A stretch of DNA of 24,206 nt, taken from the NCBI RefSeq assembly GCF_003334315.1, contig NZ_QOWR01000065.1, one strand, 5' to 3'. Both the position numbers and the translations under genes were made by a program. Positions 1-24,206 of this stretch are shown here, one piece after another (position 1 is the first letter of the stretch; every line of letters begins with the position of its first letter). Origin of the DNA: Escherichia coli. Lineage in GTDB: Bacteria; Pseudomonadota; Gammaproteobacteria; Enterobacterales; Enterobacteriaceae. Under the pieces are notes generated by a model. That model was not told where the DNA came from and searched no databases. It saw nothing but the letters and a program-made list of their open reading frames with translations.

Positions 1-109
1 CTTTTCAAAAGGGTATTTTGGCTTTGACATATTAGGGGCTATTCCATTTCATCGTCCAACAAAATGGGTGCAGTACATACTCGTTGGAAATCAACACAGG
101 AGGCTGGGA

Positions 110-262
110 ATGCCGCAGAAATATAGATTACTTTCTTTAATAGTGATTTGTTTCACGCTTTTATTTTTCACCTGGATGATAAGAGATTCACTGTGTGAAT
201 TGCATATTAAACAGGAGAGTTATGAGCTGGCGGCGTTTTTAGCCTGCAAATTGAAAGAGTAA
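110..262 (+). CDS. hokA: Hok/Gef-family type I toxin, 50 aa small membrane peptide
   Basis: The 50-aa translation MPQKYRLLSLIVICFTLLFFTWMIRDSLCELHIKQESYELAAFLACKLKE is a typical Hok toxin. AGGAGG lies at 98-103, 6 nt before the ATG at 110. The ORF track extends this frame upstream to a GTG at 68. Adjacency to cspA matches the K-12 layout. Confidence 0.8.
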   Translation: MPQKYRLLSLIVICFTLLFFTWMIRDSLCELHIKQESYELAAFLACKLKE

Positions 263-270
263 GAGTCTTC

Positions 271-290
271 GGCGGGAAATTATTCCCGCC
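271..290 (+). terminator. Perfect hairpin after hokA stop (GGCGGGAA-ATTA-TTCCCGCC); possible terminator or fold-back element
   Basis: 8-bp perfect inverted repeat read directly from the sequence. The downstream tract is only weakly T-rich, so terminator function is uncertain. Confidence 0.35.
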
Positions 291-392
291 TTACTTACGG
301 CGTTGCGCATTCTCATTGCACCCAAATTTATTCTTCACAAAAATAATAATAGATTTTATTACGCGATCGATTATTTATTTCCTGAAAACAAA

Positions 393-419
393 TAAAAAAA
401 TCCCCGCCAAATGGCAGGG
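393..419 (-). terminator. Rho-independent terminator of cspA
   Basis: On the minus strand, CCCUGCCA-UU-UGGCGGGG forms an 8-bp stem with one G-U pair, followed by a run of seven U. It sits about 30 nt downstream of the cspA stop. Confidence 0.7.
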
Positions 420-448
420 ATCTTAGATTCTGTGCTTTTAAGCAGAGA

Positions 449-661
449 TTACAGGCTGGTTACGTTACCAGCTGCCGGGCCTTTAGCGCCGCTTTCGATG
501 GTGAAGGACACTTTCTGACCTTCGTCCAGAGATTTGTAACCATCGTTCTGGATAGCAGAGAAGTGTACGAACACATCTTTAGAGCCATCGTCAGGAGTGA
601 TGAAGCCGAAGCCTTTGTCAGCGTTGAACCATTTTACGATACCAGTCATTTTACCGGACAT
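449..661 (-). CDS. cspA: Major cold-shock protein CspA, 70 aa
   Basis: Translation [70 protein letters not shown] carries the cold-shock domain RNP motifs KGFGFI and VFVHF. Full-length ORF. Confidence 0.97.
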
Positions 662-803
662 AGTGTATTACCTTTAATAATTAAGTGTGCCTTTCGGCGA
701 TATGGCGTGCTTTACAGATTTTGAAGCGTTAAAGGAATGTGCACTACGAGGGGTATCAACGATAACTCTTGAAGGGACTTGCCTTACTACACTGCTTTAA
801 TGG

Positions 804-814
804 TCTGTACGTCA
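804..814 (-). promoter_or_regulatory. cspA 5'-UTR cold box (TGACGTACAGA on the coding strand)
   Basis: Exact 11-nt cold-box motif at the 5' end of a roughly 160-nt leader upstream of cspA. The cold box is an established feature of the cspA leader. Confidence 0.7.
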
Positions 815-828
815 AACCGTTGATGTGC

Positions 829-880
829 ATTAAGCCACGCATTGGCGGGTGATGCAACAATTATTTTTCATATTTATGAT
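829..880 (-). promoter_or_regulatory. cspA promoter: -35 TTGCAT, 17-bp spacer, -10 CTTAAT, AT-rich UP-like tract upstream
   Basis: Minus-strand reading gives TTGCAT (852-857), a 17-bp spacer, and CTTAAT (829-834). The tract 858-880 reads CATAAATATGAAAAATAATTG. The predicted start near 822 gives a leader of about 160 nt. Confidence 0.6.
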
Positions 881-941
881 TAATCGGTTGGAAAACGGTC
901 CTGTCATCAGGACCGTAAACAGCAATAAAGTGGATAAAAGT

Positions 942-1232
942 CTATTCCATCAACTGCTTACTTAATGCCGGGTTGGCTTGAATCAAACGCATCAATTTTA
1001 GTTCGGCACTTGAAGGCTTCACGCGTCTGGATTCCCATTCCTTTACCATGGCGACTGATACGCCCAAAACCCGGGCGAAATCATCGATTTTTAATCCTGT
1101 CCCTTTTCGTAACTGCTCAATTTCGGTACAGGACGTTGTTCTGTGCGTCAGGGTAATTTTCTGCGTTTCATCTTTAAAAACAATCTGTTCCAGGCTGCTC
1201 AACAGCTCATGCATTGGATCTTTATATTCCAT
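942..1232 (-). CDS. yiaG: XRE-family helix-turn-helix transcriptional regulator YiaG, 96 aa
   Basis: Full-length 96-aa ORF with an HTH region (LGVSVAMVKEWESRR). Position between cspA and yiaF matches K-12. Confidence 0.85.
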   Translation of the reverse strand: MEYKDPMHELLSSLEQIVFKDETQKITLTHRTTSCTEIEQLRKGTGLKIDDFARVLGVSVAMVKEWESRRVKPSSAELKLMRLIQANPALSKQLME

Positions 1233-1665
1233 TGAAAACTCCTCAAATCACACTGCGGGATCGTGAATTGCATCGAAGCTCATTAAGAATAGTCGGGAAA
1301 AGCAGACACAGCGGGGTGAAGTCAGGGCATGCTCTGGCTATGATTCGATTCAGCCTGTCATTTAGCGTGACTTATAGCCACCTAACGATCTGATAAATGC
1401 CGATATATCTCTTACCACTCCTGTTTTGTAAAGATTTCGAAAATCTAACCTTCTGCGAAGGCGTAAATCTCTGGCTACAAAAAAGGCAACGGCACTATCA
1501 TTTTTTAACAATGAAACAACAAATTAACCTTGTTTCATTTTCTCCATGATTTTACCAGGAAGATTACGTAGAAAGGGTATCCTGCAAGCCTGTCCTGGAC
1601 TATCCTTGTCACGTCAGACACGCGTGTGTCGTTGTGCGCTTTTTTTGGGTGAAAGGAGTAAGAAA

Positions 1666-2376
1666 ATGGCGACAGGAAAGTCCTGCTCTCGCTGGTTTGC
1701 GCCTCTTGCGGCGTTATTAATGGTAGTTAGCCTGAGTGGGTGTTTTGATAAAGAAGGCGATCAGCGTAAAGCGTTTATCGACTTCCTGCAGAATACAGTG
1801 ATGCGTAGCGGTGAACGTCTACCAACCCTGACTGCCGATCAGAAAAAACAGTTTGGTCCTTTTGTCTCTGATTACGCGATTCTGTATGGTTATTCTCAGC
1901 AGGTGAATCAGGCGATGGATTCCGGTCTGCGCCCGGTTGTAGACAGCGTTAACGCAATTCGCGTACCGCAGGATTACGTTACGCAAAGCGGTCCGCTGCG
2001 TGAAATGAATGGTTCGCTGGGTGTGCTGGCGCAACAACTGCAAAATGCGAAGTTGCAGGCCGATGCTGCGCACTCTGCGCTAAAACAGAGTGATGACCTG
2101 AAACCGGTCTTTGATCAGGCATTCACCAAAGTGGTAACGACGCCAGCTGATGCATTGCAACCGTTGATTCCGGCGGCACAAACTTTCACGCAACAACTGG
2201 TGATGGTTGGAGACTACATTGCCCAACAAGGTACTCAGGTGAGCTTTGTCGCAAATGGCATCCAGTTCCCGACTTCACAGCAGGCAAGTGAATATAACAA
2301 ACTGATTGCGCCATTACCGGCACAGCATCAGGCGTTTAATCAGGCCTGGACTACAGCAGTTACTGCAACCCAATAA
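1666..2376 (+). CDS. yiaF: Lipoprotein YiaF (DUF3053 family), 236 aa
   Basis: AAGGAG at 1653-1658 precedes the ATG at 1666. The N-terminus MATGKSCSRWFAPLAALLMVVSLSGC has a signal peptide and an LSGC lipobox. The ORF-track start at 1546 is an in-frame upstream extension without an RBS. Confidence 0.85.
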   Translation: MATGKSCSRWFAPLAALLMVVSLSGCFDKEGDQRKAFIDFLQNTVMRSGERLPTLTADQKKQFGPFVSDYAILYGYSQQVNQAMDSGLRPVVDSVNAIRVPQDYVTQSGPLREMNGSLGVLAQQLQNAKLQADAAHSALKQSDDLKPVFDQAFTKVVTTPADALQPLIPAAQTFTQQLVMVGDYIAQQGTQVSFVANGIQFPTSQQASEYNKLIAPLPAQHQAFNQAWTTAVTATQ

Positions 2377-10234: not shown

Positions 10235-11926
10235 ATGAGATACATCAAATCGATTACACAGCAGAAGCTGAGCTTTTTGCTTGCAATCTATATTGGCCTT
10301 TTTATGAATGGCGCGGTTTTTTACCGCCGCTTCGGCAGCTATGCGCACGATTTTACCGTCTGGAAAGGCATTTCTGCTGTTGTTGAACTGGCCGCCACCG
10401 TACTGGTGACCTTCTTTTTACTACGTCTTCTTTCGCTGTTTGGCCGCCGCAGCTGGCGTATTCTGGCATCGCTGGTGGTGCTCTTTTCCGCAGGTGCCAG
10501 CTATTACATGACCTTCCTTAATGTGGTCATTGGTTATGGCATCATCGCTTCCGTCATGACCACCGATATCGACCTGTCAAAAGAAGTTGTTGGTCTGAAC
10601 TTTATTCTCTGGTTAATCGCCGTTAGTGCATTGCCTCTTATCCTTATCTGGAATAACCGCTGTCGCTACACCTTGCTCCGACAACTGCGAACCCCAGGGC
10701 AGCGTATTCGCAGCCTGGCGGTCGTCGTACTGGCGGGTATTATGGTTTGGGCACCGATTCGTTTGCTGGATATCCAGCAGAAGAAAGTGGAGAGGGCGAC
10801 CGGCGTTGATTTGCCGAGTTATGGCGGTGTCGTAGCGAACTCTTATCTGCCATCAAACTGGCTTTCTGCGTTGGGGCTGTATGCCTGGGCGCGGGTCGAT
10901 GAATCTTCCGATAATAATTCATTGCTTAATCCGGCGAAGAAATTCACTTATCAGGCACCGCAAAACGTTGATGACACTTATGTCGTGTTTATCATCGGTG
11001 AAACCACGCGTTGGGACCATATGGGTATTTTCGGCTATGAGCGTAATACCACGCCGAAACTGGCCCAGGAGAAAAATCTGGCGGCGTTCCGTGGTTACTC
11101 CTGTGATACCGCAACCAAACTCTCACTGCGTTGCATGTTTGTACGTCAGGGGGGCGCGGAAGATAATCCGCAGCGCACATTAAAAGAACAGAACATTTTC
11201 GCGGTTCTGAAGCAGTTAGGATTCAGTTCTGACCTCTACGCTATGCAGAGCGAAATGTGGTTCTACAGCAACACGATGGCGGACAACATTGCTTATCGTG
11301 AGCAGATTGGTGCGGAGCCACGTAATCGTGGCAAGCCGGTAGATGATATGTTGCTGGTAGACGAAATGCAGCAATCGCTAGGGCGCAACCCGGATGGTAA
11401 GCATCTGATCATTCTGCATACCAAAGGTTCGCATTTTAACTACACCCAGCGTTATCCGCGTAGCTTCGCGCAGTGGAAGCCGGAATGTATTGGTGTTGAT
11501 AGCGGCTGTACCAAAGCGCAGATGATCAACTCCTATGACAACTCGGTGACCTATGTGGATCACTTTATCTCCAGCGTGATTGATCAGGTTCGCGATAAGA
11601 AAGCGATTGTGTTCTACGCAGCTGACCACGGTGAGTCAATTAATGAACGCGAGCACCTGCACGGCACGCCGCGTGAACTGGCACCGCCGGAGCAGTTCCG
11701 CGTACCGATGATGGTCTGGATGTCAGATAAATATCTGGAAAATCCGGCCAATGCGCAGGCGTTTGCGCAGCTGAAAAAAGAAGCCGACATGAAAGTGCCA
11801 CGCCGTCACGTAGAGCTGTACGATACCATCATGGGTTGTCTTGGCTATACTTCACCGGATGGTGGAATTAACGAAAACAACAACTGGTGTCACATCCCGC
11901 AGGCAAAAGAGGCAGCGGCTAACTAA
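10235..11926 (+). CDS. eptB: Kdo2-lipid A phosphoethanolamine transferase (sulfatase/alkaline-phosphatase superfamily), 563 aa
   Basis: N-terminal transmembrane segments followed by a periplasmic sulfatase-like domain. Start set at [10 protein letters not shown] (10235). Confidence 0.9.
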
Positions 11927-12017: not shown

Positions 12018-12351
<334 letters not shown>

Positions 12352-12352
12352 C

Positions 12353-12438
12353 GTAGGCCTGATAAGACGCGTCAGCGTCGCATCAGGCAAATGTGCCGGC
12401 CATTGTCGGATGCGGCGCGACCGCCTTATTCGACCTAC
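12353..12438. repeat. REP elements (BIME-like pair of palindromic units)
   Basis: GTAGGCCTGATAAGACGCGTCAGCGTCGCATCAGGC, followed by a degenerate unit ending GCGGCGCGACCGCCTTATTCGACCTAC. Both resemble E. coli REP palindromes. Confidence 0.6.
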
Positions 12439-14648: not shown

Positions 14649-14820
14649 TGCCTGATGCGCTCCGCTTATCAGGCCTACGAAAATTCTGCAATGTATTGAA
14701 TTTGCACGATTTTGTAGGCCGGATAAGGCGTTAACGCCGCATCCGGCATAAACAAAGCGCACTTTGTCAACAATCTGTATACCCGGTGGCGCTGTGCCTC
14801 TGCGTGCAGCGCCATCCGGC
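14649..14820. repeat. BIME: cluster of about three REP palindromic units between dppA and dppB
   Basis: TGCCTGATGCGCTCCGCTTATCAGGCCTAC (about 14649-14687), GTAGGCCGGATAAGGCGTTAACGCCGCATCCGGCA (14714-14748), and CCGGTGGCGCTGTGCCTCTGCGTGCAGCGCCATCCGGC (14782-14820). Confidence 0.75.
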
Positions 14821-20506: not shown

Positions 20507-20574
20507 AGAGAAAACCCCCGCACGTTGCAGGTATGCACCTGACAACACCACGGGGGCTAATCTTGACTCTAGAC
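20507..20574 (-). ncRNA. rdlD: Rdl antisense RNA, antitoxin of the ldrD type I toxin-antitoxin pair
   Basis: The minus strand reads GTCTAGAGTCAAGATTAGCCCCCGTGG...GCGGGGGTTTTCTCT, a stem-loop ending in a U-tract, upstream of and antisense to the ldrD leader. Ends are approximate. Confidence 0.6.
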
Positions 20575-20622: not shown

Positions 20623-20730
20623 ATGACGTTCGCAGAGCTGGGCATGGCCTTCTGGCATGATTTAGCGGCTCCGGTCATTGCTGGCATTCTTGCCAGTATG
20701 ATCGTGAACTGGCTGAATAAGCGGAAGTAA
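20623..20730 (+). CDS. ldrD: Ldr-family type I toxin, 35-aa membrane peptide
   Basis: MTFAELGMAFWHDLAAPVIAGILASMIVNWLNKRK is a full-length Ldr peptide. It is the C-terminal part of the 91-aa ORF 20455-20730 in the track. Confidence 0.85.
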   Translation: MTFAELGMAFWHDLAAPVIAGILASMIVNWLNKRK

Positions 20731-23753: not shown

Positions 23754-24206
23754 GGTAATGACTCCAACTTATTGATAGTGTTTTATGTTCAGATAATGCC
23801 CGATGACTTTGTCATGCAGCTCCACCGATTTTGAGAACGACAGCGACTTCCGTCCCAGCCGTGCCAGGTGCTGCCTCAGATTCAGGTTATGCCGCTCAAT
23901 TCGCTGCGTATATCGCTTGCTGATTACGTGCAGCTTTCCCTTCAGGCGGGATTCATACAGCGGCCAGCCATCCGTCATCCATATCACCACGTCAAAGGGT
24001 GACAGCAGGCTCATAAGACGCCCCAGCGTCGCCATAGTGCGTTCACCGAATACGTGCGCAACAACCGTCTTCCGGAGCCTGTCATACGCGTAAAACAGCC
24101 AGCGCTGGCGCGATTTAGCCCCGACATAGCCCCACTGTTCGTCCATTTCCGCGCAGACGATGACGTCACTGCCCGGCTGTATGCGCGAGGTTACCGACTG
24201 CGGCCT
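23754..24206 (-). mobile_element. IS1 insertion sequence, partial (window ends inside the element)
   Basis: The terminal inverted repeat GGTAATGACTCCAACTTATTGATAGTGTTTTATGTTCAGATAATGCCCGATGAC starts exactly at 23754, and the adjacent ORF encodes IS1 InsB. About 453 of 768 bp are visible. Confidence 0.95.
23769..24206 (-). CDS. insB: IS1 transposase InsB (5' end beyond window)
   Basis: Translation [48 protein letters not shown]...[15 protein letters not shown] matches IS1 InsB. The frame stays open to the window edge. Confidence 0.9.

Follow-up and report, generated by a model that had tools for sequence, protein, structure and literature searches.

The cold-inducible csp paralogues of Escherichia coli are transcribed with long leaders of 145-160 nt and carry a conserved cold box (PMC6719143). 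For cspA, the leader has been given as 160 nt (PMC6386945) or 159 nt (PMC6719143) and the whole transcript as 428 nt (PMC9947658). This mRNA acts as a thermosensor (PMC6386945, PMC9947658): cspA RNAs shorter than 190 nt adopt the same fold at all temperatures, and the folding pathways diverge in longer RNA (PMC6386945). The first ~9 codons of cspA form part of the element that allows translation in the cold (PMC6386945). The literature further describes a promoter that works both at 37°C and in the cold and an mRNA that is cleaved by RNase E.

We analyzed positions 804 to 880 of a 24,206-nucleotide stretch of E. coli DNA (contig NZ_QOWR01000065.1 of assembly GCF_003334315.1; hereafter the window), in which a sequence-only reading had recognized the cspA control region. 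Our results support the conclusion that this segment holds, on the minus strand, the promoter, start site, and cold box of cspA, and none of them speaks against it. The sole substantial open reading frame (ORF) adjoining it runs from 661 to 449 on the minus strand, and 804-880 is therefore to be read on that strand. This ORF is the cspA coding sequence (449..661, minus; ATG at 661; 70 amino acids plus stop), and it scored 172.2 bits against the NCBIfam CspA model NF007679, whose cut-off is 130. It lies inside a match to Rfam family RF01766, the cspA thermoregulator, a model that represents the whole 428-nt cspA transcript. The match is full length (model positions 1-428 of 428; window 821->394, minus strand) and scores 500.8 bits (gathering score, 78; E = 1.1e-141). 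In a base-by-base comparison, window positions 1..2009 were 100% identical to E. coli K-12 MG1655, and the gene order (IS150 end, hokA, ysaE, cspA, yiaG, yiaF, ghrB) is that of K-12. A 581-bp query comprising cspA and its upstream region likewise showed 100% identity to MG1655 and is present as a single copy in 5,423 of 5,426 complete E. coli genomes; positions 802-885 (84 bp) are identical in 4,337 of the 5,423. With K-12 identity, a full-length RF01766 match, and K-12 neighbors, the claim that the locus is intact was confirmed. All four cspA control-region features are present, on the minus strand only, a strand that the sequence-only reading had left unstated.

The segment is the cspA promoter and cold box of K-12, familiar from textbooks and without a single change, and as such already known; given this identity, anything novel would bear on cspA biology generally. 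It serves as a landmark, marking the cspA locus as intact and the same as in K-12 and fixing both the strand (minus) and the position at which the transcript is expected to begin (821/820). We regard as nearly certain the explanation as a whole, namely, a K-12-type cspA promoter, start, and cold box whose cold induction is mainly post-transcriptional. The locus, motif positions, predicted hairpins, and conservation come from the present analysis, and the functional steps are drawn from the literature or inferred.

In many RefSeq/PGAP E. coli genomes, one MG1655 assembly among them, this gene (449-661) carries the label [quoted passage not shown] although it is cspA. CspA scored 124 bits against the CspE equivalog model NF049933 (cut-off, 120), and the error probably arises because CspA passes the cut-offs of both the CspA and the CspE models.

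From 884 to 802, the minus strand reads ATTAATCATAAATATGAAAAATAATTG-TTGCAT-CACCCGCCAATGCG-TGG-CTTAAT-GCACATCAAC-GGTTTGACGTACAGACC. The -35 hexamer TTGCAT (857-852, minus) agrees with TTGACA at 3 of 6 positions, and the -10 hexamer CTTAAT (834-829, minus), which lacks the A at hexamer position 2, agrees with TATAAT at 4 of 6. Between them lies a 17-bp spacer (851-835, minus), within the 16- to 18-bp range, at whose 3' end stands the extended -10 motif TGn (TGG; 837-835, minus) with TG at -15/-14. The arrangement TTGCAT-N17-CTTAAT (857..829, minus) is unique in the window. The core hexamers match only 7 of 12 consensus positions, and 842 sites in the window match at least equally well. When TG at -15/-14 was required, the 842 sites fell to 48, and when an A+T content of 85% or more was required of the upstream tract as well, the cspA site alone was left. 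A generic sigma-70 consensus scan of the window did not call the cspA promoter, because CTTAAT has no A in the second hexamer position, and returned one unrelated plus-strand site, in yiaG. The sequence-only reading had described a near-consensus promoter, a description that does not fit hexamers matching at 3/6 and 4/6 positions and a site to which the generic scan is blind. The cspA promoter is instead distinctive through its weak core combined with an extended -10 motif and an upstream (UP) tract, and the common misconception that it is a strong consensus promoter is corrected accordingly. The extended -10 motif is reportedly critical for this promoter, as Phadtare & Severinov are said to have concluded in 2005. 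The spacer also contains CCAAT at 841-845 (minus), which we take to be the Y-box core once proposed as a DNA target of CspA; the commonest E. coli single-nucleotide polymorphism (SNP; 846 G->A) adjoins it.

The -10 hexamer CTTAAT ends 7-8 nt from the start at 821/820, a start transferred from the literature. This distance, together with the missing position-2 A for which the scan rejected CTTAAT, could be explained by a different register, in which the functional -10 element is TAATGC (832..827) and the TG at 837-836 is not a classical extended -10 motif. TAATGC falls exactly at -12..-7 from start 820, with the canonical T-12/A-11, and across 46 orthologue sequences (see below) TTAAT is invariant and the next GC is at least 90% conserved, so that this register is conserved like CTTAAT. 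Yet TAATGC agrees with TATAAT at 2 of 6 positions, is without the conserved final T, and would need a 19-bp spacer to TTGCAT. Moreover, the TG never varies and stands exactly as far from CTTAAT/GTTAAT as an extended -10 motif should, and the shifted register conflicts with the reported importance of TGn. We consider it very unlikely. It is a long shot at best that the invariant TTAATGC, the lack of a position-2 A, and the long 7- to 8-nt discriminator reflect not a plain extended -10 promoter but an unusual open-complex register that would help it to go on firing in the cold. We retain CTTAAT, preceded by TGn, as the -10 element.

The third component of the promoter is the UP element, an A+T-rich tract (ATTAATCATAAATATGAAAAATAATTG; 884-858, minus) directly upstream of the -35 hexamer. 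Its A+T content is 89%, compared with 48.6% for the window, and 11 of ~24,000 27-mers are as A+T-rich (top 0.05%); the AT-rich upstream tract noted by the sequence-only reading was thus borne out. The cspA promoter is said to require its UP element, a result attributed to Mitta et al. in 1997. Against the proximal UP subsite consensus, which we take to be AAAAAARNR, the cspA tract is a partial match (~6 of 8 specified positions). By analogy, it would be an element of the kind generally bound by the RNA polymerase alpha C-terminal domain.

Some 10 bp upstream of the UP tract lies what is presumably the terminator of yiaG (891-916, minus). This intrinsic-terminator-like hairpin, ACGGUCCUG-AUGA-CAGGACCGU (895..916, minus), is followed by UUUU at 894..891; it has a perfect 9-bp stem and a predicted energy of -15.5 kcal/mol (z = -3.4; none of 200 shuffled sequences was equally stable), and it is partly conserved among orthologues. 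With a T run of just 4 bases, it escaped the terminator scan. The hairpin is context, outside the cspA promoter, and the cspA transcription unit is bounded by two terminators, that of yiaG upstream and its own downstream. YiaG itself (942-1232, minus) is a helix-turn-helix (HTH) protein encoded directly upstream of cspA; it resembles MqsA-family type II antitoxins at 43 bits (cut-off, 61.8) and NadS at 37 bits (cut-off, 60), both below threshold.

Transferred from K-12 on the strength of sequence identity, the transcription start is expected at 821 (A) or 820 (A) on the minus strand, corresponding to 3,719,889 or 3,719,890 of NC_000913.3 and giving a leader of 160 or 159 nt. The leader measured from the RF01766 start at 821 to the ATG at 661 is 160 nt (662..821, minus, as delimited by Rfam and by the paralogue and orthologue alignments), within the range of ~145-160 nt for a long 5' untranslated region (UTR), and the orthologues would have leaders of 155-164 nt if the start is homologous. 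The sequence-only reading's figure of roughly 160 nt is therefore right in length, by Rfam (160) and by the published values (159/160), although most of the leader lies beyond 804-880.

The cold box, TGACGTACAGA, is exact at 814-804 (minus), corresponding to +7/+8 to +17/+18, in agreement with the sequence-only reading, and no second exact copy occurs in the window. Its 11-nt wording is, we assume, that of Jiang/Fang/Inouye. The cold box has been implicated in the shut-off of cspA once Csp proteins accumulate, according to work from the Inouye laboratory. It is predicted to form a 5'-proximal stem-loop, GGUUUG-ACGUA-CAGACC (818-802, minus), with a 6-bp stem and a 5-nt loop. The calculated energy is -6.4 kcal/mol (z = -2.6), the pairing probability in the predicted fold of the full-length mRNA is 0.97-0.99, and the same helix appears in the RF01766 consensus. 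This stem-loop reportedly stabilizes the mRNA at low temperature, a finding ascribed to Xia et al. in 2002.

At one mismatch or fewer, 3 cold-box matches were found in the window, the true one counted, against 0.16 expected by chance. The two others match at 10 of 11 positions: TGACGCACAGA at 1140-1150 (minus), within the yiaG coding sequence on the cspA strand, and TGACGTACAAA at 11138-11148 (minus), antisense to eptB. Visual inspection showed no complementary arms on either side of the yiaG copy, and both matches are probably due to chance. The yiaG match (1150..1140) could be a second functional Csp target, a weaker alternative to the idea of an unusual open-complex register.

The conservation of these elements was assessed with an orthologue scan that used one genome per species and a degenerate coding-sequence pattern, which avoids bias to upstream motifs. 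The scan yielded 49 loci from Citrobacter, Salmonella, Klebsiella, Raoultella, Kluyvera, Enterobacter, and other genera; the 45 with enough upstream sequence, together with the window, gave 46 distinct sequences. Invariant in these 46 Enterobacteriaceae sequences are TTGC of the -35 hexamer, the TG, TTAAT of the -10 hexamer, and the GGTTTG and ACAGAC arms. The spacer, by comparison, takes 39 different forms, 36 sequences having one of 17 bp and 10 having one of 18 bp, and the median A+T content of the UP tract is 77%. The first base of the -10 hexamer is G in 40 sequences and C in 6, making the Escherichia CTTAAT a minority form. The cold box is exact in 26 of the 46 and differs elsewhere by 1-3 changes, mostly in the loop. 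Five of the six stem pairs are unchanged in every orthologue with both bases (one sequence is gapped at 803), and the closing G-C pair is lost (G-A) in 4 sequences. No compensatory changes in the near-invariant stem occurred among the 46 sequences, and because the stem is essentially invariant, covariation speaks neither for nor against the hairpin. Within the species, the three variant E. coli genomes sampled carry changes in the spacer (846, 849, and 850) or in the distal upstream tract and none in the -35 hexamer, TGn, -10 hexamer, start site, or cold box. Such conservation is the hallmark of a genuine promoter with a constrained RNA 5' end behind it.

Conservation also bears on the simplest objection to the assignment, namely, that the motifs arose by chance or form part of a plus-strand feature such as the short ORF at 849..965(+). 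Similarity of the hexamers alone is indeed unremarkable, given 842 comparable sites in the window, and short ORFs overlap 804-880 on both strands. However, the cold box is both exact and unique where ~0.16 matches would be expected by chance even at one mismatch, the E value of the RF01766 match (1.1e-141) leaves little room for coincidence, and the conservation of 804-880 follows the promoter and RNA elements, not codons. The objection thus seems to us vanishingly improbable. No gene is annotated at 804-880 among the E. coli records listed; this, together with the conservation pattern, rules out the plus-strand and short-ORF readings.

The sequence-only reading had also called the segment a complete control region. 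It is not, because the published thermosensor needs 803..~632, including the start of the coding sequence: the leader down to 662, the Shine-Dalgarno sequence, and the first codons all lie outside 804-880. Downstream of the segment, on the minus strand, the alignments identify a conserved leader block, GCCGAAAGGCACA (698..686), followed by the Shine-Dalgarno sequence AAGG (674..671) in the leader and by the "downstream box" region, ATGACTGGTATCGT (649..636), within the first ~9 codons of cspA. The transcript ends at the cspA intrinsic terminator (394..424, minus; hairpin, 424..397), which was found by the terminator scan and has a predicted fold of -19.0 kcal/mol (z = -4.9); the RF01766 match ends at 394.

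These elements can be assembled into a model that follows the published account of K-12 cspA. Promoter strength would come, as published work attributes it, from the extended -10 TGn and the AT-rich UP element despite the weak TTGCAT and CTTAAT hexamers, and cspA would therefore be transcribed at 37°C as in the cold. Initiation at 821/820 would yield a 428-nt mRNA with a 160/159-nt leader. At 37°C, this mRNA would be extremely unstable, with its leader paired with the coding region; in the cold, it would be stabilized, with a contribution from the 5' cold-box stem-loop, and would keep a fold that leaves the ribosome-binding region more exposed. Cold induction would thus be mainly post-transcriptional, and the role of 804-880 would be to provide constitutive strong initiation and a 5'-terminal hairpin. 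Given the identity to K-12 cspA, we infer that expression is cold induced here as well.

The competing view is that cold induction is driven mainly by the 804-880 promoter, through cold-specific activation of transcription. The element is widely known as a "cold-shock promoter" and serves in cold-inducible vectors (PMC9800685), and cspA transcription in the cold is reported in the literature to rise by up to ~three-fold. Such a rise is small, however, beside the induction seen and beside the shift in mRNA half-life, from ~12 s at 37°C to a stable mRNA in the cold (literature). Furthermore, translation in the cold (15°C) in vitro needs the 5' UTR and first codons (PMC6386945), and CspA is abundant at 37°C too, in early exponential growth (PMC6386945). 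We find this view highly improbable. Under the mainly post-transcriptional model that we prefer, most of the cold specificity is encoded downstream, from 803 to ~632, and not in 804-880.

RNAs of 25, 160, 187, and 428 nt were folded, each at 37, 15, and 10°C. In equilibrium ViennaRNA folding of the full-length mRNA, the Shine-Dalgarno sequence and AUG were paired at all three temperatures, whereas the published switch depends on the folding pathway; for that reason, thermodynamic prediction is the wrong tool for the thermosensor, and this step of the model is taken wholly from the literature. The fragments of 160 and 187 nt can also form a long-range helix that, at equilibrium, competes with the cold-box hairpin.

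Several features elsewhere in the window were recorded. At its start, positions 1-310 hold the last ~30 bases of IS150 and then the hokA/mokA type I toxin locus and ysaE, as in K-12 MG1655. At its other end, an IS1 element extends from 23754 to the end of the window (24206), with the terminal repeat GGTAATGACTCC, and interrupts bcsE relative to K-12; an ORF at 23769-24146 (minus) is a fragment of its transposase (128 bits against NF033558). Owing to this IS1, the whole window gives many plasmid and multi-copy BLAST matches. Relative to MG1655, the first 20.7 kb contain only 13 SNPs, of which 7 cluster in or just downstream of yiaF (2010-2412), and 17 more lie between 20718 and 22999 (ldrD-bcsG); this patchiness looks like small recombination patches in a K-12-like background. 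Rfam also identified an RtT-like element (12129-12262) that closely follows tRNA-Pro (12018-12094), the REP-derived naRNA4 (12356-12435, minus), ES036 (14671-14713, minus) between dppA and dppB, and the rdlD antitoxin RNA (20509-20574, minus), which adjoins the ldrD toxin gene (20623-20730).

The closest described system is K-12 cspA itself (b3556; coding sequence at 3,720,049-3,720,261 of NC_000913.3), whose sequence is the same as that of the window over the whole locus and whose neighbors, yiaG upstream and ysaE, hokA, and IS150 downstream, are the same as well; the window differs from MG1655 outside the cspA locus, by scattered SNPs and the IS1 insertion in bcsE. A wider comparison is provided by an alignment of -260..+45 of cspA with K-12 cspB, cspG, and cspI, in which mean column identity is ~69%. 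All three paralogues have in common with cspA the AAAATAA-TTGC sequence that joins the proximal UP tract to the -35 hexamer, the extended -10 arrangement TG-n-NTTAAT, and, farther downstream, the GCCGAAAGGC block and the first codons. Their -10 hexamer is GTTAAT, in contrast to CTTAAT in cspA. The cold box GGTTTGA..ACAGAC is common to cspA, cspB, and cspG, with the center reading ACGTA in cspA, AAGAA in cspB, and AAAGA in cspG, whereas most of it is missing from cspI in this alignment. Beyond the csp family, the cspA promoter resembles the sigma-70 promoters with UP elements and extended -10 motifs (e.g., the rrnB P1 class) in that it likewise offsets weak hexamers with TGn and an A+T-rich tract.
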